A stretch of DNA of 64,000 nt from contig JACPNK010000005.1 of NCBI GenBank assembly GCA_016185525.1, positions 28,473 through 92,472 on the forward strand. The letters run 5' to 3'. The translations under genes and the position numbers were made by a program. Within the stretch, counting starts at the first letter, position 1. Each line of letters starts with the position of its first letter. Of the stretch, positions 14,140-63,256 are shown piece after piece. Under the pieces are notes generated by a model. It saw only the letters and a program-made list of their open reading frames with translations. It did not search any database and was not told where the DNA came from. The stretch comes from Candidatus Yanofskybacteria bacterium (GTDB taxonomy: Bacteria; Patescibacteriota; Minisyncoccia; 2-02-FULL-40-12; IGHO2-12-FULL-4).

Positions 14140-15504
14140 TTACTTATCAAAAGATTGGTATATTCTTTCTTTAATTAAAACAATTTCCTGTTTTGTAATT
14201 TCATCCGTTTCTTCTTCAGTTTTCACTTTTTCATAAGCGTGAATTACCGTGGAATGGTCTCTGCCTCCCAATTTCTGGCCGATCTCCGGAAAAGATGATT
14301 TAGTCTCTTCTCTTAGTAAGTACATAGCAATCTGTCTGGGTCTTACCACCTCTTTCTTGCGGCTTCTTTTTATCAAATCGTTTGGCGAAATGTTATAGAA
14401 ATCAGAGACAGATTTTAAAATTAATTGAGGGGTGGTTTTTTTGTATGGCGTACTCAAGTAAGTCGCAAGCAGTTTTTTGACTTCTTTAACATCCAGATTT
14501 TTGTTATAAATCTGGCTTACGGCGATGATTCTGTTTAAAGCGCCTTCCAGTTCTCTTATATTTTTTTGTATGTTTGTTGCTATGTAACCCAAAACGTTTT
14601 CATCTAAAGCGATGTCTTTTTGTTTTGTTTTCAGTTTCAAAATAGCCAGTCTCGTTTCAAAATCCGGTGTGTTTATGTCGGCAATCATTCCTCCTTCAAA
14701 ACGAGATCTGAGCCTTTCTTCCAATGCAGGTATGGCTTTAGGCGGACGGTCTGATGACAAAATAATCTGTTTGTTTTTCCCATACAGCTCGTTGAAGGTT
14801 GCAAAAAAGATATCTTGGGTTTTTTCTTTTCCGGCTATAAACTGAATATCATCAACAATAAGCATGTCCAGTTTTGCATATTTGCTTTTAAGTTCTTCAA
14901 CATTTTTGTTTCTTACAGACTCAACAATTTCAGCCGTAATTCTTTCGGAAGGGATATAAAGGACTTTTTTGGTCGGATCGTCTTCTAAAATCTTATTGCC
15001 GGTAGCTTGCAGCAAATGAGTTTTTCCCAGACCGACTCCGCCATAAATGAATAAAGGATTATAGGCTTTGCCAAGATTTTTGGCGACAGCCGAACTTGCG
15101 GCATGAGCCAGCTCGTTGTGAGAGCCGACTATAAAAGAATCAAAAGAATATTTTTTGTTTAAGTTTGTTTGAGGATTAATGTCAGCAGGCTGTTTGTTTT
15201 CAAATACCCTCTCTGTGATGAATTGGGAAAAGTCCTTTTTGACGTTTGATTGAGGCAAACTGTTGCCGATAGTGTAACTAATCTCTCTAATTTCCGGAGA
15301 AAAAGTTTGTATAGAAGTCAGTATTTGTTTATGGAATTTGTTTTCTAACCATTCTTTGATAAATCCATTAGGAACTCCGACTATAACCGAAGTCCCTTCA
15401 TTGGCTAATATGGAAGTGTTTTTAAACCAGGTAGTAAAGTTGGCCTTGGAAAGAGAAAGCTCCATCTCTCCCAAAACAGCTTTCCACAATTCTTCTTTGG
15501 TCAT
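14140..15504 (-). CDS. dnaA: chromosomal replication initiator DnaA
   Basis: 454 aa; AAA+ Walker A GGVGLGKTHLLQA and a C-terminal DnaA-box binding domain (HSTVIHAYEKV). Confidence 0.95.
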   Translation of the reverse strand: MTKEELWKAVLGEMELSLSKANFTTWFKNTSILANEGTSVIVGVPNGFIKEWLENKFHKQILTSIQTFSPEIREISYTIGNSLPQSNVKKDFSQFITERVFENKQPADINPQTNLNKKYSFDSFIVGSHNELAHAASSAVAKNLGKAYNPLFIYGGVGLGKTHLLQATGNKILEDDPTKKVLYIPSERITAEIVESVRNKNVEELKSKYAKLDMLIVDDIQFIAGKEKTQDIFFATFNELYGKNKQIILSSDRPPKAIPALEERLRSRFEGGMIADINTPDFETRLAILKLKTKQKDIALDENVLGYIATNIQKNIRELEGALNRIIAVSQIYNKNLDVKEVKKLLATYLSTPYKKTTPQLILKSVSDFYNISPNDLIKRSRKKEVVRPRQIAMYLLREETKSSFPEIGQKLGGRDHSTVIHAYEKVKTEEETDEITKQEIVLIKERIYQSFDK

Positions 15505-24595: not shown

Positions 24596-26671
24596 TTAAG
24601 GAATTATTAATTCTTTTGCCGCCGCATCGGCGGTTGAATTATTGTCTCTTACTGCTTGGCGTAGCCTGTTTTTAAAAGTATTTCTAGCTTTGGCAGAAGT
24701 GAAACCCACAAGCTTGTTGTCCAAAGCGGTTTTGAAATCGGGGTCTGACCAGACAGTCATGGGCATTTTAGAAATCTCCACGGGGTTAGTTAAGGATTTT
24801 TCTATATATTGGTCTCGCCTCATAGGCGCAACTCCTGGTCTAGGCGGCAAGGTCATTTTGAAAGAAGCTACCAGATCAGGACGCACTTTATTAATGGCCT
24901 TTATGTAGTTCGCTCCATCTATAGTCTCGTTTCCTCCAAACAGCTCTAATCCGTTTTCAAAAGCCACATTATCAAATTCAGCGTCAGACAAAGCTTTTTC
25001 GTCGCCTTGTATAAATTTATACCATTCTTTTCTGGAAGAAATGGCGGACGGAGTTTTATATTTTAAGTAAGTTGGTCCTTCAGCTTTTGCCATTTGCACC
25101 AGCTGGCTCGTTGGAACTTTCTTGTAGCCACCTTTGGCGGCTCTTGCTGACATAGACTGCGCTACAAAAGCGTTTCTTTCTGTCCAGTCGGTCATGTCTT
25201 TGTCAAACTCTGCGGCGTCAATCAACCCTCTTTCATAAAGGAGCCCTCTTGCGGCCATGCCTTTTATACTGTTTCGGTCTTCTTTAAGGGTATTTGCTTG
25301 AAAAGTGTTGTCTACTGTGAGTTCTCCAGCAAGCTCTAGGTTCTTTAAGCGAGCTACCTCTGCATCTATCTCACCCACCTGCTGTTGCTGAAGTTTGGTT
25401 TCTGGGGTGTAGCCCAACTTTCTTGCCAACTTTTGTTCCCAAGCGGCAGTTTCTTTTTGGGCGCCTCTGGTGCCAGTATATAACTTACCGAGCAATCCAT
25501 ATTGTTCTGGTAAGCCTTCTTGTTTAACTCTTTTAAAAAGTTCTTGTGCGCCCGTAACACCAGTTTTTCTTTTTGCCCAGTTGTTTATGGTCCCGCTGAT
25601 ATTGCCGAAAACTTTGGTGGCGCCACTGCCGGCGGCAAAGCTAGCTTTCAAGGAAGCGGCGAGGCCGCCGATTAAAATGATGACAGTCAGGATCCAATAG
25701 AAAAGATCCTGAAAAGCAAAGCCAAAAAAGTTAGCTGCTCTAGTCGGCAATCCAACTGGACCGCTGCTTTGCTCCGCTAAAACAGCAGCGGCGCTTAAGT
25801 CAGGCCTGCCCTTGAGAATTACAATGCCCATCATAAGGGCGAATAAGTAAGTTGGCAGGAAAAAAGTCCAGCCGATAAACCAGTTCCACCATTTACTCCA
25901 AATCTGTCTTGTGCTGGGTAAAATATAAGAAATCCAGGCGATGGGCGAGACTATAAGTAAAGCCCACAAAACCGGCACTCTTACCATTGAAAATATCAGA
26001 GCCGCAAGCATTGCCAGCAAAGTGATAACGGCCACAATCAACATGCCACCAAGTGAAATTATGGCGCCTAAGGCTAAAGCTTCCGGGTCGCCTGAAGATT
26101 TTTCCAGGACAGCTTTTACGCTGCTGGTGCCTCCGCTTAGAGCGGCGCCTAATTTAGTGATTCCGAAACCGCCTGCCAAATCGATGGTGATGTCGCCAAA
26201 CTGTTTGAGCACCAGATTGGATAAGTTATTGGAAACGTCTATCAGAAATCCGCCTATCGCCAAACTAAAATTTATCAAAAGAGCGGCCACAATAAATTTG
26301 GCCATCAGGCCCTTCCAGTTGTAATTCTGGATGTCAAAAATAGTCGCAAAAGCAATGATGATTAAAATCAGGATAAAAAACATATTGGCGAAGTTGCGAA
26401 AAACTTCCCAAGAAGTTTTGACAATGGCGACTTCTTCAAAAAACCCTCCCTGAAATTTGAGGAACCAAGATAAGGCGTAAGCTGTCCAGGCTAGAGCTGT
26501 GCCTATGAATCCCATAACTAACCCCTGGAAGAACAAAATTATTTTTGAGAGAACTGTATTGACCATATCAATTCCCAAAAAAGCATGGGCTTTAGGCGCT
26601 GAAAAAACAAAAACAGCCAGGATAAAAATTGGTAGTATAAATTTTATTTTTTTGTAGATCGTTTTGCTCAT
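24596..26671 (-). CDS. polytopic membrane protein, VirB6/TrbL-like (putative channel component)
   Basis: 691 aa; signal peptide, at least 8 TM helices in the N-terminal two thirds, C-terminal soluble domain. Confidence 0.45.
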   Translation of the reverse strand: MSKTIYKKIKFILPIFILAVFVFSAPKAHAFLGIDMVNTVLSKIILFFQGLVMGFIGTALAWTAYALSWFLKFQGGFFEEVAIVKTSWEVFRNFANMFFILILIIIAFATIFDIQNYNWKGLMAKFIVAALLINFSLAIGGFLIDVSNNLSNLVLKQFGDITIDLAGGFGITKLGAALSGGTSSVKAVLEKSSGDPEALALGAIISLGGMLIVAVITLLAMLAALIFSMVRVPVLWALLIVSPIAWISYILPSTRQIWSKWWNWFIGWTFFLPTYLFALMMGIVILKGRPDLSAAAVLAEQSSGPVGLPTRAANFFGFAFQDLFYWILTVIILIGGLAASLKASFAAGSGATKVFGNISGTINNWAKRKTGVTGAQELFKRVKQEGLPEQYGLLGKLYTGTRGAQKETAAWEQKLARKLGYTPETKLQQQQVGEIDAEVARLKNLELAGELTVDNTFQANTLKEDRNSIKGMAARGLLYERGLIDAAEFDKDMTDWTERNAFVAQSMSARAAKGGYKKVPTSQLVQMAKAEGPTYLKYKTPSAISSRKEWYKFIQGDEKALSDAEFDNVAFENGLELFGGNETIDGANYIKAINKVRPDLVASFKMTLPPRPGVAPMRRDQYIEKSLTNPVEISKMPMTVWSDPDFKTALDNKLVGFTSAKARNTFKNRLRQAVRDNNSTADAAAKELIIP

Positions 26672-26679
26672 TGCTCAAG

Positions 26680-27918
26680 TTATTGATCTATGGTGGGGAT
26701 AGCGCATTGCTGTTCGCATTCAACTCGTTTATTATTTTCACAAATCTGTTTTTCTGCGGGAGTTGAAAGCGGATTACTGCAACTGGCTGATGCGTTTATG
26801 GCGCAGAAAGAATAGCAGTCATTTTGCGCCCCGCCAGTGTATTGCCCAGTTTGACTAGCGCCTTTGTCTTCGGAACCGGGGCTGACTGACGTGAAACCGG
26901 TTTTGTCCAAAGCAAAATTCGCTAGCTTGTTAATAGCGGCGCTGACTATAGCCATAATTACTTCCGAAAGCTCATCTGAAGTGACCAGCCACTTGGAGTT
27001 GTTATCAAACCATTGTGCCGCGCTTTCACCCAATATTTTTGCCGGGGTTAAAGTTTTACCAAGGAAGTTGCATTGAGCGCCGGCTCCAACGCTAGTTTGA
27101 CCTTGGCATTGGTTCAAACAAGTTTTGTCAGCGTCGCTGACGCATAAATTTTTTCGATTTAAATCAGGAATAATGTTACAGGCTCTTAGCAACGGGTCGT
27201 AACAGTTGTTGTAGCAGACAGTGCTTCTGACATTGGGAGTTCCTCGGCACGAACCTTGCGCTCCGGTAAAACCGCCGCCTCCGACAATTTCGCTTTGTCT
27301 AGCATTTTCTTGGGAGCTTCTTTGTTTATTTAATTCTTCCAAACTTATTGCCAAAGCTCCGGCTAAATTATTTTGCGGTTCCACCAAACGTGACCATGTC
27401 TCCCAGCCGCCGCCTTTTTCAAAACTTTTTTTAAAGTCAGCCCTGACCTTTTCTGGAATAGTGCATTTAATTTTAGTTTGAAATGGTGTCAGAGTGTCTT
27501 GTTTTAGTTCGTCATTAAAATCCGTCTGACCGATATCGACGTACGGAACACTGCTTGTTTGAAAGGCCAGGGCCAACGGCCCTCGTAAGTCGTCGCACAA
27601 AATACCCTTTTGTATAGAATAGTTTAACTGGGTGCGGAATTGATTTTCTCCTATTCTTTGGGCGTCAGCTAGAAACTTTTTCCAATTTTGCACGAAACTG
27701 GGCGCTTGTTGTCCTTTTTCAAGACCCAGGTTGTTTATGGAATTAACAACTCCGTTGCTTAGGTTTGTGAGCAGTCTTCTTGCCAAGGCCCTTGCTATCA
27801 AGTCAAGGCCGAATTCTTTAGTGATGTAAGCGATAGCGGCTGCTCCTTGACTGGCATAAAAAGGCACGCTAAAACCAAGCGCAAATATTAAAACAAGGAT
27901 AGTTATTTTTTTCCTCAT
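26680..27918 (-). CDS. secreted cysteine-rich protein (hypothetical; candidate surface or effector protein)
   Basis: 412 aa; signal peptide plus about 30 Cys in CxxC-like spacing (CYNNCYDPLLRAC, CLNQCQG, CENNKRVECEQQC). Confidence 0.45.
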   Translation of the reverse strand: MRKKITILVLIFALGFSVPFYASQGAAAIAYITKEFGLDLIARALARRLLTNLSNGVVNSINNLGLEKGQQAPSFVQNWKKFLADAQRIGENQFRTQLNYSIQKGILCDDLRGPLALAFQTSSVPYVDIGQTDFNDELKQDTLTPFQTKIKCTIPEKVRADFKKSFEKGGGWETWSRLVEPQNNLAGALAISLEELNKQRSSQENARQSEIVGGGGFTGAQGSCRGTPNVRSTVCYNNCYDPLLRACNIIPDLNRKNLCVSDADKTCLNQCQGQTSVGAGAQCNFLGKTLTPAKILGESAAQWFDNNSKWLVTSDELSEVIMAIVSAAINKLANFALDKTGFTSVSPGSEDKGASQTGQYTGGAQNDCYSFCAINASASCSNPLSTPAEKQICENNKRVECEQQCAIPTIDQ

Positions 27919-31876: not shown

Positions 31877-34800
31877 CTAGTCATAATCTATAAAATCTTC
31901 GTAATTAAAGTCCCGCCTAAACGGTTTTTTTGTATTTTCAGATATAAAATCTTCGGGTATTTCAGAGACGAATCTTGAAACCGGATTAAATTGAGACGAA
32001 CCATAAACCATGCGGTTTTGGCAGTGAGTCAAATAAAGTTTTTCTTTGGCTCTGGTGATTCCAACATAGCAAAGTCTTCTCTCTTCCTCCAACTCAACCG
32101 GATCAGTAATTGATCTGGGATGAGGAAACAGACCTTCTTCCATGCCTGCTAAAAAAACGGTTGGAAATTCCAGGCCTTTGGAAGCGTGCATGGTCATCAG
32201 GGTTGCGCTTTTTTCTTGGTTTTTAATTTGGTCGGTTTCTTGTATCAACGAAACCTCTTCCAGAAAAACCGGCAGAGATTCGCGCGACTTTAGGTTGTCG
32301 TATTTTGACGTAACTGTCAGAAGTTCTTTTACGTTCTCCCAGCGGGATTCGTGGTCAACAGTTTTTTCCTGAAGGTATTTTTGGTAGTCAATATTTTGGA
32401 GGAGTTTTTTTATGAGTTTTGAAAGGTAAGACTCGTCTAGTTTTTCTTCCAAAGCATTTATGGTTTTGCTCAATGAAGCCAAACCGGACAAAGCTTTCTT
32501 ATCTAATTCTTCTCTGTGATTTTTGAAAAGCTCAAAAACATTTCCGGCAGATTTTTGTTTTTGAATTTCCAGTATCCTTTCAAATGTTTTCTTGCCGATT
32601 CCTCTGCTTGGTACGTTGTGAATTCTTTCTAAACTAAAGTTGTCGCTCGGATTGAGCAGAAGCCTTAGATAAGCCAAGACGTCTTTAATTTCTTTTCTTT
32701 CATAAAATTTTAAGCCGCCAATAATTTTGTAGGGCAGACCGGCTTTCAGCATGGCTTCTTCAACAGCGCGGGACTGGGCGTGAGTGCGGTATAAAACACA
32801 AAAGTTGTTTAAGTCTTGTCCTTTTTTTAGTCCCTTTTTTATTTCGTCGGTTATAAATTTACCCTCTTCTCTTTCATTTCCTAATTCGGCAAGCAGTATT
32901 TTTTCGCCTTCCTGATTTTCAGTCCAGAGATTTTTGTGTCTTTGGAATTTATTGTTTGAAATAATATTTTGGGCGGCGGCTAAGATGTTCTGGGTTGAGC
33001 GGTAGTTTTGCTCCAAAAAAACAATTTTTGCCTCCGGATAGTCTCTTTCAAAACTTAAAATGTTGCGCAAATCTGCTTGTCGGAATCCGTAAATAGAGTT
33101 ATGGACAGCAAAATTGTTGGCAGTATAAGTGTGTGTTCTTTCAATATCTAGGTCGTAAACGGGGCCGTTATAATCAATTTTTTTAATATCAATGATTTTT
33201 TCGTTAACAAATTTTTTACCGTTAAAAACAGGAACAACCATGTGGGAATGCAAGTGAGATGCAGGCATAAAGTCAAAGTTAATGTCGGTGATTAAGGCGT
33301 GTTTTGTGACTTCAACGCCACACAATTCGGCTATTTGGCCGGCAAATTCTTCTGCCTTTTTATTATCGGCAAATACTTTCTCAATTCGCCAAGTATTAGC
33401 TTTGCCTTTTCTGACTTTCAGTCCGGAGTCTGTGAGTAATTTTCTAATTTTTTTGTTTTGGTTGTTTATACTGACTCTTGCTCTCCGTGACTTTGCTCTA
33501 GTTCCGCCATCGGAAGATGAAAAGTAGCACAGATTAACGGAAGTTCTCTTGGTTTGAAATTTTGTGGTTCCTTGCGGTCGGTGGTGGGGATAACTAAACG
33601 ACAAATCCAGATCAAGCATTAATTTTTTAGCGCGTTCAGCGCTTGGTATTTCTCGGAAAAGCTTTTCAATTTGTTTTTGGGTAATTAAACCGGAATCCGG
33701 GCCATTGCCTCTGTCAGCAAAAAAGACGGTAGTGGGTATGCCATAGTTAAAAGCATAATAAGACTCCCAAAAATGAGCTTCGGAACGGTTAGGCGAAAGT
33801 TTTAGAATCCACATTTTGTCAGCTCTTTCTTGATTAGCCCGCACATTTAGTCCAAGTCTGCTTTTGTTTTTTTTTATCTGTCTTATTCCCACAGTAACGC
33901 CTATTCTGTATCCTAATTTCTTAGAATACATCAAGTAAGTAAGAAAAAAATTTTTAGAGGGAAGAAGTTTACTAAACAAAATATGGTTGGGGGTGGTTTG
34001 TAAGACATTTCCATTTGCAGTGGTTATTTCCAGTAGCGGCCCCTTATATCGAAATCTTCTTGCATTTAATACTTTTGCCGGGCGAGTTAAACTTCTTCCG
34101 GCTGGCGACAAAATGTTCTCCCCTTTACTGACTTTTTCAATCTCTTTTAAGCCCTTTTCGGTTTTAATTTTTGTTTTTGGCGGAAAACATTGGTAATCAT
34201 CCCCAACAGCCATGATATTTTTGTGTTTTTGAGCCAGCATTTTCAGAAAAAGATACTGCGGTTTGTTGGTGTCCTGATATTCATCAACCAAAATGTATCT
34301 AAAGCGGTCTTGGTATTTTTCCAGTATGCTTTTTCCCTGTTTTAACATTTTTACGGTCCAAAAAAGCAGATCGTCAAAATCCATAGCGTTGCTGTTTTCC
34401 AAGTTTTTCTGGTAGAGAGGATAAATTTTAGCGACGATTTTTTCAAAAAATTCCTTAGCCGAGCCGCTGTATTCAGCCGGTCCGGCCAGGTTGGTTTTGG
34501 CTTCAGATATTCTGGCAAGCACGGCGCGGGGATTTGTTTTTTTTGTGTCAATTTCCAGTTCTTCCATTACTTTCTTGATAACGCCAAGCTGATCCTCGGT
34601 ATCGTAAATGACAAAGTTGGAAGTGTAAGGCGAGTTAAATTTTCCGATTTCGTTTCTTAACAACCTTGCCGATATGGAGTGAAACGTCCCCAGCATAGGA
34701 AAACCTAAATTTTGAATTTTGCCTGCCCCGCCGTTGGCGTATGACCTGGGGAATTTTGAATTTTGAATTAAGCTTATAACCCGCTCCCTCATCTCCCCCG

Positions 34801-34993
34801 CGGCTTTGTTTGTGAAAGTAACCGCTAAGATATTTTCTGGTCTTACTCCCTGCTGGATTAAGTGAGCAGTCCGATGGGTCAGCACCTTTGTTTTACCGCT
34901 GCCAGCGGCGGCAATAACCAAAACCGGACCCTCTGTGGCCCGTACCGCTTCAACTTGTTTTTCGTTTAAACCCTCAAAAAGATTTTTAGACAT
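31877..34993 (-). CDS. UvrD/PcrA-family ATP-dependent DNA helicase interrupted by an intein
   Basis: Walker A AAAGSGKTKVL and DEYQDTN. Motif III VGDDYQ is split from SIYGFRQAD by about 367 aa. C-terminal helicase motifs (QNYRST, VTRAKEKL) are intact. Confidence 0.85.
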   Translation of the reverse strand: MSKNLFEGLNEKQVEAVRATEGPVLVIAAAGSGKTKVLTHRTAHLIQQGVRPENILAVTFTNKAAGEMRERVISLIQNSKFPRSYANGGAGKIQNLGFPMLGTFHSISARLLRNEIGKFNSPYTSNFVIYDTEDQLGVIKKVMEELEIDTKKTNPRAVLARISEAKTNLAGPAEYSGSAKEFFEKIVAKIYPLYQKNLENSNAMDFDDLLFWTVKMLKQGKSILEKYQDRFRYILVDEYQDTNKPQYLFLKMLAQKHKNIMAVGDDYQCFPPKTKIKTEKGLKEIEKVSKGENILSPAGRSLTRPAKVLNARRFRYKGPLLEITTANGNVLQTTPNHILFSKLLPSKNFFLTYLMYSKKLGYRIGVTVGIRQIKKNKSRLGLNVRANQERADKMWILKLSPNRSEAHFWESYYAFNYGIPTTVFFADRGNGPDSGLITQKQIEKLFREIPSAERAKKLMLDLDLSFSYPHHRPQGTTKFQTKRTSVNLCYFSSSDGGTRAKSRRARVSINNQNKKIRKLLTDSGLKVRKGKANTWRIEKVFADNKKAEEFAGQIAELCGVEVTKHALITDINFDFMPASHLHSHMVVPVFNGKKFVNEKIIDIKKIDYNGPVYDLDIERTHTYTANNFAVHNSIYGFRQADLRNILSFERDYPEAKIVFLEQNYRSTQNILAAAQNIISNNKFQRHKNLWTENQEGEKILLAELGNEREEGKFITDEIKKGLKKGQDLNNFCVLYRTHAQSRAVEEAMLKAGLPYKIIGGLKFYERKEIKDVLAYLRLLLNPSDNFSLERIHNVPSRGIGKKTFERILEIQKQKSAGNVFELFKNHREELDKKALSGLASLSKTINALEEKLDESYLSKLIKKLLQNIDYQKYLQEKTVDHESRWENVKELLTVTSKYDNLKSRESLPVFLEEVSLIQETDQIKNQEKSATLMTMHASKGLEFPTVFLAGMEEGLFPHPRSITDPVELEEERRLCYVGITRAKEKLYLTHCQNRMVYGSSQFNPVSRFVSEIPEDFISENTKKPFRRDFNYEDFIDYD
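33098..34198 (-). mobile_element. intein (about 367 aa) in helicase motif III
   Basis: Begins CFPPKTKIKTEKGLKEI... (Cys1) and ends ...NNFAVHN followed by the +1 Ser of SIYGFR. No clear LAGLIDADG motif was seen, so the endonuclease domain may be degenerate or absent. Confidence 0.7.
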
Positions 34994-35063: not shown

Positions 35064-35136
35064 GTATCCCCGGACCGATTTGAACGGTCGGCCTCTTCCT
35101 TCGGAGGGAAGCGCTCTTCCGCTGAGCTACGGGGAC
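35064..35136 (-). tRNA. tRNA-Arg (anticodon CCG)
   Basis: Cloverleaf GTCCCCG/TAGCTCAGCGGAAGAGC/CTTCC-CTCCGAA-GGAAG/GACCG-TTCAAAT-CGGTC/CGGGGAT-A. No encoded CCA. Confidence 0.8.
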
Positions 35137-35178
35137 GATTCCAACGAGATAAATTTTTTCTTGCGAGTTGCCAGATGA

Positions 35179-35592
35179 TTATTTAATTTTTTCTAAGTCA
35201 CCGTTTATAATGACTGGCTTAACGGCCTCAATCTCTGACTTGTAATACGGTATTTCTGGAATAGGATTGTACAAAAATATTTTCTGACCTAAAACATGAG
35301 CAAATCCTATTTCCATTAACGTATTGCCGCCGATATAGTATTGAATGTTGTTCTTGTCCAGGTTCATTACTAATATGGCGTCTGCTCCCTGCATTAATTT
35401 CCAGAATTCTTTTATAGCATCCAAATTATATTTTTGATGAAGTTTGATTTTCTCTATTTCTTCATCAGATTTGCCAATGAAAGGATCTGCAAGATTTGTG
35501 AGAAAAGCATCGTGTCCATATTTAACAAGCTCATCACGAGCTTCAATCATTTTTTCTGTATATTGCATACTGCCAACAACTCCAATTCTCAT
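35179..35592 (-). CDS. nucleoside 2-deoxyribosyltransferase-like small protein (putative)
   Basis: 137 aa; the pattern GADAILVMNL...GGNTLMEIGFAHVLGQKIFLY resembles the PF05014 fold. Confidence 0.35.
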   Translation of the reverse strand: MRIGVVGSMQYTEKMIEARDELVKYGHDAFLTNLADPFIGKSDEEIEKIKLHQKYNLDAIKEFWKLMQGADAILVMNLDKNNIQYYIGGNTLMEIGFAHVLGQKIFLYNPIPEIPYYKSEIEAVKPVIINGDLEKIK

Positions 35593-35628
35593 AATTATTT
35601 TTGTTGTATTTGTCTCCTGTTAGAAATG

Positions 35629-35703
35629 CTGGTGGACCCGAGGGGAATTGCACCCCTGACCCCTGCAATGCGAATGCAATGCTCTGCTGCTGAGCTACGG
35701 GCC
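35629..35703 (-). tRNA. tRNA-Ala (anticodon CGC), CCA encoded
   Basis: GGGCCCG/TAGCTCAGCAGCAGAGC/TTGCA-TTCGCAT-TGCAG/GGGG-TGCAATT-CCCCT/CGGGTCC-A-CCA. Confidence 0.8.
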
Positions 35704-35712
35704 CGTCTCTTA

Positions 35713-35784
35713 GTCGGAATGCCGGAATTCGAATCCGGACTACCACCACCCGAAGATGGCGTGCTACCGTTACACCACATTCCG
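35713..35784 (-). tRNA. tRNA-Pro (anticodon CGG)
   Basis: Starts with a C1-G72 pair (CGGAATG...CATTCCG-A) as is typical of tRNA-Pro; anticodon loop TTCGGGT; T-loop TTCGAAT. Confidence 0.75.
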
Positions 35785-37345: not shown

Positions 37346-38110
37346 TTATTTAAATGAGTTTTTAGTGCCCTTGAATATGCTAATTTTAAACTTTTCTTTC
37401 AAAAATTTATCTTGTCGATTCCCTCGTTTATCAATAAAGAATGAACCATTTTCTATACCGAGTTTCTCTTGTAAAAAGTCTAGTAATTTTGACTTAAGAT
37501 TTGGGTGTTTTTTGAGGATACTATCTTGAATTTTGAGGTCGTAAAGCACTGCACCGAGCAGTAGATCGGTTAGTTGCAAAAGATCGGAAGATTTTGAATT
37601 TATTTGCAAGAATCCGGCAATAACTATCTTTTTATAATGATCGTTTACTATGCCACGAGTTGCTAGTTCCAAGTTTATACCATCAGGATAAAAATAATCA
37701 TCAGCCAGTACCGTACATATTTGATTGTCACCATTTCCAATGTTTCTCTTAAGAAGATCTACTGTAAAAGAACGGTAAACCTTTAAAAGGTTGTTGTTAA
37801 AATAAGTTTTAAAGTCCAACTCGTTCTTTTTGAGAATAATAGAGCTAAATACAGCGGAAGGATCTTTAAAGAAAGCTTCAAATCCCTGCTTTATGATTTC
37901 ATATTTAAGCGGACTCACTTTGTTCCATTTTAGTTCTTCATAAAAGTGAAGTTTGTCACGCAAGGTTCTTATTTTTCTCTGTAGTTCATGGGGCCGTTCT
38001 GTTCTGATTACGCCCAATGCAAAATATGGGTCATCACCTTTTTTTAATATACCAGTTTCATCTAGGAAAAATACTGGCAATTTTATTTTTTTGAAGTCGT
38101 TATCTATCAT
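37346..38110 (-). CDS. DUF3800-like hypothetical protein
   Basis: 254 aa; N-terminal VFFLDETG and a C-terminal LTDLLLGAV pattern as in DUF3800. Confidence 0.4.
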   Translation of the reverse strand: MIDNDFKKIKLPVFFLDETGILKKGDDPYFALGVIRTERPHELQRKIRTLRDKLHFYEELKWNKVSPLKYEIIKQGFEAFFKDPSAVFSSIILKKNELDFKTYFNNNLLKVYRSFTVDLLKRNIGNGDNQICTVLADDYFYPDGINLELATRGIVNDHYKKIVIAGFLQINSKSSDLLQLTDLLLGAVLYDLKIQDSILKKHPNLKSKLLDFLQEKLGIENGSFFIDKRGNRQDKFLKEKFKISIFKGTKNSFK

Positions 38111-55537: not shown

Positions 55538-56917
55538 ATGGCAACAAATCCTCCTCCTTCAAATTTACCGATAGCAAAAGATTCAGAGTCAACCCCTCAA
55601 TTGCCGCCTGTCCGTCCAGCAGACGGGCCTCTAGCTTCTTTGCCTACCCGTCCGGCCCGCCTGCCGGACGGGCAGGCAGGCGGGCCTGTATTACAACCGC
55701 CAAAACCAACGACCCCAGTTACTATTCCGATACCAGTCGTACCCAAACCTCCGCTAACCGCTACTCCACTTCCACCAATCATCACCCCTTCTGCTAAAAG
55801 TTCACCTAACACTTTGTCCCCCATCCTTCCACGACCAGTCCAACCTGGTCTAGGAACCAGCAACATTAGCGCCAAATCCTCCATTAGAACCATGGAAAGT
55901 GACATTAAATCTGTTGGTCAAGGAGCTCCGGCAAAGGGTGTTGAAGTAATCATACCCAAATCCACACCTCTACCGTCTATTGGCCAACCTGAATCTGACA
56001 GGTTACCAAAAAAGCCACTACCGCCTTCGGCAAGTGTAAGTATTGCCGGAGCAGAAAAACGTTCCGTACTTCCTAATGTCAGACCATTTATTCCAGAACA
56101 AGTCAAGGATAAGCCTGCTACATCAGCGGAAATTGCCGTACCGCCCAAAAAGACCCAAATATTCAGCCGCTGGACTCTAATTGCAATTATTGTTCTTGCG
56201 GTTTTAGGAAGCGGCGGGTACTGGTTCTACTTCTTAAGAGAAGGCGAAACTCCTGCCACCGTCTCTTCGCCGACTCCCACTTTCAAGCCCGATTTTCTTA
56301 AACCGCTAAAAACAATTTTTACCGCTAATGATTCGGTTATCATCCCCGACCTTGCTTCCATAGAAAACTTGGAACCGCTTAACTTAGCCTTATCTCAAAT
56401 AGTGATAAGCGAAGGTTCAAAAAATTTATTTTTAGAACCCAAAAATGAAGCTGAAGAACCCATAGCTTTTTCAAGCTTTGCCAGCAGATTCCTTGGCAAC
56501 TCAAACCAGAGCCTTCTTGGTAACATAACAGATAAAAGATTTGGTTTGGTAATATCGCGCCAGCAAGAAAAGTTTGACTTTCTGGGCGAACCGGTTTTGG
56601 GAGCAGAGTTGGAAACCAGAACCGCTTTGATTGTTGAGGTTACAGATGCAATTTCTGCCAAAACAGCCATGTCGGAATGGGAGCAAATCCTCCCGGAAGC
56701 TTTATTGGATTTCTTTCAGATTACAGATGAATCGGACCAAATCTCTTTTGATGACAACATATACCGAGACGTGGGTATACGATTTATGAACTTTCCTTCA
56801 CCCGACAGATCCATAGATTATGCTTTTGTTTCCTCGGCGACGGGTAGCACCTACCTTGTAATCGCTAACTCTCGTGAGCAAATATACTCAATTACCGATA
56901 CTCTTTTAGGATTTTAA
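55538..56917 (+). CDS. Pro/Thr-rich membrane-anchored protein (hypothetical)
   Basis: 459 aa; about 200 aa Pro-rich N-terminal region, one TM (WTLIAIIVLAVLGSGGYWFYFL), C-terminal globular domain. Confidence 0.45.
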   Translation: MATNPPPSNLPIAKDSESTPQLPPVRPADGPLASLPTRPARLPDGQAGGPVLQPPKPTTPVTIPIPVVPKPPLTATPLPPIITPSAKSSPNTLSPILPRPVQPGLGTSNISAKSSIRTMESDIKSVGQGAPAKGVEVIIPKSTPLPSIGQPESDRLPKKPLPPSASVSIAGAEKRSVLPNVRPFIPEQVKDKPATSAEIAVPPKKTQIFSRWTLIAIIVLAVLGSGGYWFYFLREGETPATVSSPTPTFKPDFLKPLKTIFTANDSVIIPDLASIENLEPLNLALSQIVISEGSKNLFLEPKNEAEEPIAFSSFASRFLGNSNQSLLGNITDKRFGLVISRQQEKFDFLGEPVLGAELETRTALIVEVTDAISAKTAMSEWEQILPEALLDFFQITDESDQISFDDNIYRDVGIRFMNFPSPDRSIDYAFVSSATGSTYLVIANSREQIYSITDTLLGF

Positions 56918-61510: not shown

Positions 61511-63256
61511 TTGAAAACTCTGTTTTTTGTTTGTGCAAAGGAAGGAGGAAAAATGAGACGCTTTTCGCTGGTTTTATGCTTGTCTGTCATTTTACTGACG
61601 GCCTGCGGGAAAAGTGTCCACCTTCCCGCTCCCGGACCCGAAAAAGAAAAACAAACGCAAGAACAAAAAGAAATAGCCAAACAAAAAAACTCTTTCTTAA
61701 ATAAACTCAACTCTTTGGAAAAGAGTTATCACCGCATAAATGGCAAGATGCTGGAAAAGAGAAGCAGGGGATACAACACTGCCGAGGCCGAAGCTATTTT
61801 GAGTGCTATACAAAAGAGTTTGTCCGAAGCCAAAGATTTGGCTTATTGGGAAAATTTTGAAGAGCTTAAGCTGAAAATTGAAGAGATAAAAATACTGGCT
61901 AAAAAGGCCGACTCTTTAATTAAATCAGCCCCCGAATTTGGCGATAAACCTATAAAAAAAGAGAAGATACAAAGAAAATACGGACTTGACGACCGAGAGC
62001 GGGTTAGAGAAATAAGAGGGGAGCCGGACAAGTTTAATAAGCATATCCGAACGCCATCAAGAGTTACACTTAGGATTTCCAACCCCACGCCGATGCTAAC
62101 CAGTTCTAACTGCTGGAGCGACTTTACACAGACTTTTGTGATAGAGAGTCCGCCGAATGTAGAAAGCTGGTATTATCCGGAAGATCAAATGCTCTATATT
62201 TTTATTGAGACCAACTCAATTGTTGACCAATTTATGTTAAGCAATGAGTTGCCAGATTCGGAAAGAGACAGACTGCTTGCCCAACTCTGCGTTGTGCAAA
62301 GTTACTCCGGGTACAAGCTTATCTATGCTGACGCACCGAAAACCGACGTCGGCCAAATCTTAGAACAGGTTTTTGGCGGAGCTTATCGTAGCGCTGATAT
62401 GTTTGGGGTTGGTGCTTTGGACCGTCTGGCTAAAGCCACAGCCGTTTTGCCTGACCTTTCCGTAGCTTCTGTAGCTTTCAATACCAAACTAGAGCCGCTT
62501 AATAGACAACAAAAGGAAGAGTTTGACAAGTTTACTGAATTTATAAACACTATTGATCCGGCCGTAGCCAATTTTTTGGCAGAGAACGAGGTTATCAGAA
62601 AATCTGACGAACCGGAAAATATAAAAGACAAAAAGACGAGAGAATTAATGAGTCGGCAATCCGTCAAAACAAAGAAGGCTCTTGAAGCTGTAAACAGGGT
62701 CTTTAAATGGCAAAGGACACTTGACCCTGAACTAAAAGATATTGAGCGCCTAACCAAGCTTTTTCCTGAAAAAGAAAAGGAAATTAAAGAGATTTTGGAA
62801 TTATTCAGCCAAAGTCTGGCCGGTTTATCTGACCAGTTTGAAGATCTCCGCAAAGAACTTCTGAAATTCAAAAACAGCGGTTTTTTGGAGCTGATTTTTC
62901 AAAAAGATTACCCGCCAGCGACCTTTTTTCTGCTGGAGGGCGTGCGTTTTGAAGAAAAAGAACTTGCCAACGGAGAAGTTGTTGAATTGCCTGACCTATC
63001 GGTAAAAATTACAATTGAATTAAAAACGAGCAAGAAAGAACCGCCAATACTGGTTAAAGAAATGCCGGAAATTAAAATTTCCACAGCTAACCAGTTTATA
63101 AACGCGGTCAGAGAATCGCGCCGTTTAACCAGTTTCGGTTTAACTTTTCCGACAACTCTTAATCCAGGAAACTATCTGATTACTTTTTTAATTAGCGACA
63201 ATCTAAGGGCAAAAACAGTCAAGCAAACCGTTAACTGGATAGTTTTACCCGATTAA
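61511..63256 (+). CDS. lipoprotein (hypothetical)
   Basis: 581 aa; signal peptide with lipobox LLTAC. Confidence 0.5.
   Translation: MKTLFFVCAKEGGKMRRFSLVLCLSVILLTACGKSVHLPAPGPEKEKQTQEQKEIAKQKNSFLNKLNSLEKSYHRINGKMLEKRSRGYNTAEAEAILSAIQKSLSEAKDLAYWENFEELKLKIEEIKILAKKADSLIKSAPEFGDKPIKKEKIQRKYGLDDRERVREIRGEPDKFNKHIRTPSRVTLRISNPTPMLTSSNCWSDFTQTFVIESPPNVESWYYPEDQMLYIFIETNSIVDQFMLSNELPDSERDRLLAQLCVVQSYSGYKLIYADAPKTDVGQILEQVFGGAYRSADMFGVGALDRLAKATAVLPDLSVASVAFNTKLEPLNRQQKEEFDKFTEFINTIDPAVANFLAENEVIRKSDEPENIKDKKTRELMSRQSVKTKKALEAVNRVFKWQRTLDPELKDIERLTKLFPEKEKEIKEILELFSQSLAGLSDQFEDLRKELLKFKNSGFLELIFQKDYPPATFFLLEGVRFEEKELANGEVVELPDLSVKITIELKTSKKEPPILVKEMPEIKISTANQFINAVRESRRLTSFGLTFPTTLNPGNYLITFLISDNLRAKTVKQTVNWIVLPD

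Follow-up and report, generated by a model that had tools for sequence, protein, structure and literature searches.

A class-1 intein in helicase motif III of a Candidatus Yanofskybacteria PcrA/UvrD-type protein, with a probable divergent GIY-YIG-type endonuclease

What is carried by the 364-residue insertion that splits motif III of a PcrA/UvrD-type superfamily 1 (SF1) DNA helicase in Candidatus Yanofskybacteria, of the candidate phyla radiation (CPR/Patescibacteria)? The helicase gene lies in a stretch of 64,000 nucleotides (the window; contig JACPNK010000005.1, positions 28,473 to 92,472) from a metagenome-assembled genome. A preliminary description of this DNA had read the insertion as an intein splitting motif III of a UvrD/PcrA helicase, and had named three options for its central part, in which it saw no clear LAGLIDADG motif: a mini-intein, a degenerate endonuclease, or an endonuclease of another class. 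We find that the insertion is a real, full-size class-1 intein, in frame within motif III. Based on profile searches, structural models and conservation, we propose that it is a homing intein with a divergent GIY-YIG-type endonuclease and a putative DNA-binding module, a reading to which we assign a probability of roughly 0.7.

The precursor protein reads NIMAVGDDYQ/CFPPKTKIK at the first junction and NNFAVHN/SIYGFRQADL at the second; Cys269 is the first residue of the intein, N632 the last, and Ser633 the next. These are the limits that had been proposed, from Cys1 to FAVHN with Ser at +1, and the translation of the open reading frame (ORF) bears them out. In nucleotides the element had been placed at 33098-34198. 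The start holds; the true end is 34189, 9 nucleotides less, the larger figure taking in three extein codons (D-Y-Q), probably through a swap of digits. Hint models score above their cut-offs: PF14890 (Intein_splicing) on the precursor with 54.6 bits against 35.8 (E 1.4e-14), TIGR01445 intein_Nterm with 33.6 against 24.5, and TIGR01443 intein_Cterm with 17.5 against 15.6. A search of PDB sequences with the intein (phmmer/hmmsearch) returned the C-terminal halves of inteins, those of MJ0781 KlbA and Pho RadA. An AlphaFold2 (AF2) model of the entire 364-residue insertion has a predicted local distance difference test score (pLDDT) of 83.6, and Foldseek matched it in the PDB exclusively to inteins and Hint domains, best to PI-SceI (E 2e-6), with the Tli and Pho VMA inteins, PI-TkoII, PI-PfuI, the Hedgehog Hint domain and the DnaB and gp41-1 mini-inteins among the further matches. 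The preliminary description had called for the annotation of intein blocks, and blocks A, B and F/G could all be located. The splicing residues of class 1 are complete (Cys1, T66-x-x-H69, H363-N364 and Ser+1), and homologues have the same residues. There is a weak compositional difference between the intein and its exteins (GC content at third codon positions 0.35 versus 0.42).

As had also been anticipated, removing the insertion restores the helicase motif. The spliced product of 674 residues aligns end to end with Geobacillus stearothermophilus PcrA (1PJR; E 3e-180), and the alignment crosses the junction without a gap (nimavgddyqsiygfrqad versus nicavgdadqsiyrwrgad). Mapped onto PcrA, the insertion point thus falls exactly between Q254 and S255, within motif III. 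The preliminary description had held that a lack of Hint similarity, or flanks that do not align to motif III once homologues are compared, would speak against an intein at this site; both points came out in its favor. The precursor matches the Pfam families UvrD-helicase (E 1e-77) and UvrD_C (E 4e-81), and these domains, with the full-length alignment to 1PJR, place it among the SF1 helicases. TIGR01073 (pcrA) matches it in two pieces (E 2e-232) and, while still the top-scoring model, misses its equivalog cut-off (773.6 versus 911.2 bits, with the unspliced precursor scored), which is why the gene is designated PcrA/UvrD-type here.

Between the two Hint halves is an insert of about 230 residues (intein residues 73-302). 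Its AF2 model, made from a 47-sequence alignment, has a pLDDT of 89.9 and a predicted template-modelling score of 0.83, and indicates that the insert is a conserved, independently folding unit. This folded domain and the length of 364 residues rule out the mini-intein, a Hint domain only, of about 130-200 residues. Scans of Pfam, NCBIfam and PHROGs gave no above-threshold family for intein residues 76-302. Homologues are numerous. Word-indexed protein searches were misleading as to rarity, yielding just 9 and 23 relatives (the 9 all UvrD/PcrA proteins with the same site), whereas an exhaustive profile search with the insert over 1.84 billion cluster representatives (clusters at 50% identity) gave 1,792 hits at E<=1e-3, of which 1,139 had E<=1e-10 and 239 had E<=1e-30. 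The best 150 of these 1,792 are nearly all SF1 helicases of about 1,000-1,100 residues with the domain at about residues 320-550 and at the same site, and nearly all of the 150 have junctions of the form GDxxQ/C...HN/[SC]IYxFRGA. Using a 4-sequence alignment as query against one genome per GTDB species, we found 122 loci in Patescibacteria, Bacillota, Chloroflexota, Planctomycetota, Victivallales and Elusimicrobia, including the cultured strains Geosporobacter ferrireducens, Tissierella simiarum and Gemmata, and tblastn matched the central domain to 55 records from phages of E. coli, Klebsiella, Streptococcus and Campylobacter.

The label "GIY-YIG-like" was fixed as a hypothesis before testing, from the motifs YLMY...GYRIGxT, VRxNQExAD, WIL, EAxxxE and YGIPT. 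The GIY-YIG domain is defined as about 100 residues with N-terminal "GIY" and "YIG" motifs, a central Arg and a C-terminal Glu (PMC1564403); here both motifs are found in a divergent spelling (xxY and YRIG). In Pfam, the GIY-YIG catalytic domain (PF01541) is the sole recurrent family, matching 7 of the 47 members with a best E of 0.0089. These matches are in register: in three of ten N-terminal fragments, residues 10 to 71-80 align to profile positions 2 to 67-72 of 78. The Pfam E-values cover 24,736 families and, with the family named beforehand, p is approximately E/24,736, about four orders lower. When the 124-sequence alignment of the N-terminal part was compared by hhalign to an alignment of 10 GIY-YIG sequences (I-TevI, its sequence verified at 100% in T4-like phages, SegA, SegF, I-TevII, four phage homing endonucleases, and E. 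coli UvrC and Cho), the two were colinear over 79 columns with a score of 17.3 (P 0.014), which none of 150 column-shuffled controls reached (mean 10.2, standard deviation 1.8, maximum 15.8). In a Foldseek search of BFVD with the insert, three homologous viral inteins came first, followed by a GIY-YIG endonuclease of a Pithovirus group I intron (E 2.2e-4, probability 0.97), and about 13 of the next 47 matches carry the name of a GIY-YIG, Seg, NUMOD or intron endonuclease.

The modelled order of elements is likewise that of GIY-YIG domains (strand 1, strand 2, helix 1, strand 3, helix 2). In insert numbering, strands at 10-17 and 21-28 are followed by a hairpin, a helix at 41-48, a strand at 53-60 and a helix at 63-77; two linker helices and an alpha/beta module come next. 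In intein numbering, strand 1 contains TY85LM87Y and strand 2 GY94R95IG97; beyond the hairpin are helix 1 (VR117ANQE121RAD124), strand 3 (MW127IL) and helix 2 (EAHFWE142), then YGIP152T. Four of these residues, Y85, M87, G97 and E121, are invariant in the 124 sequences. R95, W127, E142 and P152 are each present in 123 and R117 in 122; D124 is conserved too, and position 94 is aromatic (Y in 85, F in 36). From this alignment and the model we propose that Y85 is the counterpart of the "GIY" Tyr, that Y/F94-R95-I-G97 takes the place of "YIG", and that R117 and E142 are the central Arg and the C-terminal Glu, respectively. Taken together, the motifs, the predicted topology and the weak though consistent profile and fold matches suggest that the first 75 or so residues of the insert are probably a divergent GIY-YIG nuclease module. 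The alpha/beta module that ends the insert is modelled as strand-strand-helix-strand-helix-strand, with conserved P201, H202, R215 and R268, and is probably the DNA-binding part; Foldseek gave it weak local fold similarity alone, to the MotA C-terminal domain and I-TnaI.

Several results weigh against this assignment. The gathering score of PF01541 is reached by none of the members (12-14.8 bits among the scores listed, versus 22.6), and we therefore file the module as "GIY-YIG-like, probable divergent member" and not as a confirmed member. NCBIfam and PHROGs scans produced no recurrent match for the central domain, profile searches of PDB sequences retrieved no GIY-YIG chain, and hhalign against I-TevI alone found no match; against the 10-sequence profile, the hhalign probability is only 3%. 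A hidden Markov model of 10 GIY-YIG sequences scored single central domains no better than shuffled ones and was dropped as evidence. Foldseek of the insert against the PDB gave nothing at E<=0.001 and no GIY-YIG structure, its weak top matches being LAGLIDADG proteins. The "YIG" Tyr is Phe in 36 of the 124 sequences, and the invariant E121 stands where His or Tyr usually sits, four residues past the Arg. On the side of mobility, intein and exteins have diverged to a similar extent within Yanofskybacteria, and the copy studied here may be vertically inherited and need not home now. A word-indexed protein search seeded with I-TevI returned near-identical fragments only and was of no help for building a profile. 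Residues 83-124 of the central domain (intein residues 155-196) also match the RNA polymerase epsilon subunit weakly with two profiles (PDB 8x6f_G, E 0.2); although recurrent, this match is probably due to chance.

On a rival reading, the intein is genuine but its insert has a novel fold, or derives from some other type of nuclease or DNA-binding domain, and its likeness to GIY-YIG (two strands with Tyr/Gly, an Arg, a Glu) is a matter of convergence or coincidence. All GIY-YIG sequence matches are sub-threshold, neither a structure nor a sequence of that family was recovered from the PDB, the hhalign probability is low, NCBIfam and PHROGs are silent, and the invariant E121, D124 and H202 lie outside the classical GIY-YIG set. 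We nevertheless think this unlikely, since Pfam, shuffle-controlled hhalign and Foldseek against BFVD are independent lines that agree on both the family and the register, the predicted order of strands and helices matches, and no other family is recurrent in any library. It is far less probable still that the insert is a LAGLIDADG endonuclease that has lost its motifs. Most inteins have LAGLIDADG endonucleases, including the other intein of the window, and the top Foldseek matches in the PDB are I-LtrI, I-OnuI and I-CpaMI (E 0.09-0.4), with a local match to I-TnaI (probability 0.66); the former, however, are non-significant (probability about 0.1, template-modelling score about 0.2, root-mean-square deviation 17 A). 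In agreement with the preliminary description, which saw no LAGLIDADG motif, none of the 47 members matches a LAGLIDADG Pfam family at E<=10, whereas the neighboring intein matches LAGLIDADG_3 at 1e-20. In addition, the domain opens with strands and not with the LAGLIDADG helix, its model has no two-fold pseudo-symmetry, and conservation peaks in the GIY-YIG-like part. Degeneration in general is also at odds with the identities to the nearest relative (Yanofskybacteria L008), which are 55% for the N-extein, 58% for the intein, 55% for the C-extein and 60% for the central domain: the insert is conserved like the helicase, and purifying selection is therefore equally strong on both, which argues against a decaying remnant. 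Among other candidates, HNH, VSR-like and PD-(D/E)xK endonucleases were absent from the matches obtained with Pfam, NCBIfam, PHROGs and Foldseek, and an out-of-frame or antisense endonuclease, as in some phage inteins, was rejected because the opposite strand has ORFs of just 69 and 81 residues and the in-frame domain is strongly conserved as protein. Of the options named at the outset, an endonuclease of another class fits best, and its class appears to be GIY-YIG-like.

The same identities bear on whether the element moves. It has to be asked whether the element has become fixed or domesticated, as a permanent unspliced helicase domain or with an inactive nuclease retained, for example, for conditional splicing that regulates PcrA. 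The nearly equal divergence of intein and exteins between the two Yanofskybacteria suggests vertical inheritance, mean intein identity is close to mean extein identity over 80 proteins, and splicing could act as a switch, since the interrupted motif links ATP hydrolysis with unwinding. Against these points, all splicing residues are intact, an insertion left between Q254 and S255 would, given what is established about PcrA motif III, very probably abolish helicase function, and the candidate catalytic residues are invariant. Over the 80 complete proteins, the correlation between intein and extein identity is moderate (Spearman 0.43), and some pairs have an intein identity of 51% versus 21% for the extein. 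This moderate correlation and the patchy phyletic spread fit repeated horizontal homing; together with such pairs, the sporadic distribution argues for repeated transfer. We accordingly give domestication very little credence and retain the homing intein as our reading, noting that the similar divergences within the Yanofskybacteria lineage are also compatible with long vertical inheritance.

Based on these data, we propose the following mechanism for the homing intein. Translation would yield a precursor in which motif III is interrupted and which, by analogy with standard class-1 intein chemistry, is expected to splice. An N-to-S acyl shift at Cys1 would form a thioester, the acyl group would be moved onto Ser+1, Asn364 would cyclize, and an O-to-N shift would leave an active 674-residue PcrA helicase and a free 364-residue intein. 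From its sequence and model, we infer that the central insert may cleave DNA. The alpha/beta module, possibly aided by the Hint surface, would bind the conserved motif-III coding DNA of an intein-less SF1 helicase allele, the GIY-YIG-like module would cut that allele and, as in the biology of other homing endonucleases, recombinational repair from the intein-bearing allele would copy the element in. Homing into the coding sequence of motif III would explain why helicases from many bacterial phyla, and from phages, are occupied at the same site. A wider claim, for which we put the odds slightly below even, is that these form an unrecognized class of inteins, the first with an in-frame GIY-YIG-type homing endonuclease: a family with more than 1,000 relatives that combines a monomeric nuclease with a new alpha/beta DNA-binding module, is specialized for motif III of SF1 helicase genes (also motif II in some phage helicases), and is still actively moving between bacterial phyla and phages.

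Table 1. Positions of the helicase gene, its intein parts and the other intein-bearing gene in the window (aa, amino acids)
Feature	Position	Strand	Basis or remarks
Precursor ORF, PcrA/UvrD-type SF1 DNA helicase with intein	31877..34993	-	1038 aa; Pfam, NCBIfam
N-extein (Walker A, motif II DEYQD and the first half of motif III), aa 1-268; last residues NIMAVGDDYQ	34190..34993	-	Sequence, 1PJR alignment
Intein, class 1, 364 aa (precursor aa 269-632); Cys1 to His363-Asn364, then Ser+1	33098..34189	-	Hint models, Foldseek
Hint N-terminal half, intein aa 1-75; block A CFPPKTKI, block B T66-P-N-H69	33965..34189	-	TIGR01445 over aa 1-72; model pLDDT 91-97
GIY-YIG-like module (probable divergent member), intein aa 82-157	33719..33946	-	Model, Pfam, hhalign, Foldseek, conservation
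Loop and two-helix linker, intein aa 158-200; conserved Q171, I181, L190	33590..33718	-	Alignment, model
C-terminal alpha/beta module (putative DNA-binding part), intein aa 201-302; YP201H202H, R215, R268 (RKGKANTWRIE)	33284..33589	-	Model, conservation
Hint C-terminal half, intein aa 303-364; FMPASH, blocks F/G: VYDLDIERTHTYTANNFAVHN	33098..33283	-	NCBIfam, PDB sequence matches
C-extein, aa 633-1038 and stop; begins SIYGFRQADLRNIL (second half of motif III), then UvrD_C domains	31877..33097	-	Pfam, 1PJR alignment
Other intein-bearing ORF, 1248-aa VirB4/TraC/TraG-type secretion ATPase, intein in Walker A loop	19433..23179	-	LAGLIDADG_3 E 1e-20

The database record for the precursor is MBI2676726.1 ("UvrD-helicase domain-containing protein", Candidatus Yanofskybacteria). 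Its surroundings in the window are those of an ordinary chromosome, with dnaA, nusA, rsmA and lnt, the genes for trigger factor, PNPase and the CCA-adding enzyme, and tRNA genes. The presence of dnaA (14140..15504, minus strand) places the region near the chromosomal replication origin, and the curve of cumulative GC skew passes through a broad minimum near 13-15 kb of the window. Immediately upstream of pcrA, at 35064..35784 on the minus strand, tRNA-Arg(CCG), a 137-residue ORF, tRNA-Ala(CGC) and tRNA-Pro(CGG) follow in this order; the ORF (35179..35592) has no Pfam match. Four further tRNAs lie at 39.7-44.5 kb, and a DUF3800 protein (E 4e-14; 37346..38110, minus strand) is encoded between the gene for the CCA-adding enzyme and a tRNA gene.

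The preliminary description had counted two intein-bearing genes of essential function in this region. The intein of the second gene stands (Table 1), but its host, a VirB4/TraC-type secretion ATPase, is not obviously essential. The junctions there are GKSGGGK/SVKGSEP and VFVHN/SYTVK, with an apparent Ser1 start. Given LAGLIDADG_3 there and the GIY-YIG-like module in the helicase, inteins about 10 kb apart would thus carry two endonuclease classes. Four large ORFs have no Pfam match (24596..26671, 26680..27918, 55538..56917 and 61511..63256; 691, 412, 459 and 581 residues); two of them adjoin the intein-bearing VirB4-like gene and may form with it a secretion- or conjugation-type cluster.

Relatives of the helicase intein occur in several other arrangements. 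Six proteins of 1.8-2.5 thousand residues (P0058, P0072, P0075, P0083, P0084 and P0139) are virus-like SF1 helicases with two to three inteins of the same family, located in motif II (VDE/C..HN/CQD), motif III and a third site (..HN/STKG or ..HN/SKQI); P0075 and P0083 additionally have a LAGLIDADG-type intein in the P-loop (GAGSGK/C...HN/T). Foldseek also found the same central domain (E 5e-8) in BFVD A0A8S5TZY8, a phage protein that bears the name adenine-specific DNA methyltransferase, so that the host genes of the intein family may include one that does not encode a helicase. In the metagenomic protein P0037 (332 residues), the central domain follows directly on the C-terminal part of a class-I Trp/Tyr-tRNA synthetase (KMSKS), the N-terminal Hint half being absent; a free-standing copy, a chimeric assembly and a frameshift are all conceivable here. 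P0103 and P0119 (362 and 367 residues) are complete ORFs of intein length; they begin with Met, have no Cys1 and show VSN or VSS at the end in place of HN, and may be free-standing or degenerate derivatives of the family.

If an active GIY-YIG nuclease is confirmed, inteins would carry a further nuclease class, and the Hint scaffold would have captured the GIY-YIG superfamily too. The domain would then be a large family (about 1,800 clusters at 50% identity) that lacks annotation in Pfam, NCBIfam and PHROGs. Its pairing of a monomeric cleavage module with a DNA-binding module would be new and might find use in nuclease engineering, as with I-TevI. The same intein type is present in cultured E. 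coli phages of the BASEL collection, where splicing, the cleavage site and homing are directly testable. For annotation, the intein explains why this PcrA is 1038 residues long and scores under the equivalog cut-off.

In its architecture, the element resembles PI-SceI (VMA1), PI-PfuI and the Tli and Pho VMA inteins, which are its closest PDB folds. In all of these the Hint domain is split by an insert between blocks B and F, with a nucleophile at position 1, TxxH, a C-terminal HN and a nucleophile at +1. Their insert is a LAGLIDADG endonuclease, whereas the one described here has no LAGLIDADG motif or Pfam match and resembles GIY-YIG. With I-TevI, I-TevII, SegA-G and I-BmoI, it shares an N-terminal module of about 80-90 residues with a strand-1 Tyr, a strand-2 aromatic-x-x-Gly, a central Arg and a later Glu, then a linker and a separate DNA-binding part (putative in our case), as well as weak profile and fold similarity. 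Unlike in those enzymes, the module is embedded in the reading frame of an intein, strand 2 and helix 1 are separated by an additional hairpin, and E121 stands in the usual position of His/Tyr; no NUMOD, zinc finger or helix-turn-helix was detected, a different domain of the alpha/beta type making up the C-terminal module. GIY-YIG members had been described from group I introns or free-standing genes and not found in inteins (Dunin-Horkawicz et al. 2006, PMC1564403). Inteins with non-LAGLIDADG nucleases show that other classes can be carried; a 2025 preprint survey lists LAGLIDADG, HNH, VSR-like and endonuclease VII-like types, the last two being rare in the papers searched and GIY-YIG not being on the list, and none of its non-LAGLIDADG families matched here. 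A phrase search of the literature found no GIY-YIG intein, its coverage being incomplete and a prior description elsewhere therefore possible.

Among helicase inteins, 16 bacterial UvrD/PcrA examples have been counted (Novikova et al. 2016, PMC4760082), and a review describes helicase inteins as P-loop insertions (PMC5874633). Our intein shares the host family of those surveyed and the preference for conserved ATPase motifs of replication and repair proteins, and differs in its site, which is motif III and not the P-loop. The closest described parallel in phages is that of E. coli phage JohannJBalmer/Bas62 (MZ501084) and its Justusliebigvirus/Phapecoctavirus relatives, in which the same intein family occupies the site GDEFQ/C...SHN/CIYQFRG with the central motifs VVYLMW..GFRVG, R..EKA, EKE, YGIPT and YPHW; the host there is a phage helicase, and the central domain has about 30% identity to that of the window. 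MZ501084 is annotated with an "intein-containing UvrD/Rep family helicase precursor", the type of endonuclease being unstated. The family is thus common and partly noticed already, and its central domain is without a name. The intein itself belongs to a known kind; if the GIY-YIG assignment holds, it is the endonuclease module that sets it apart.

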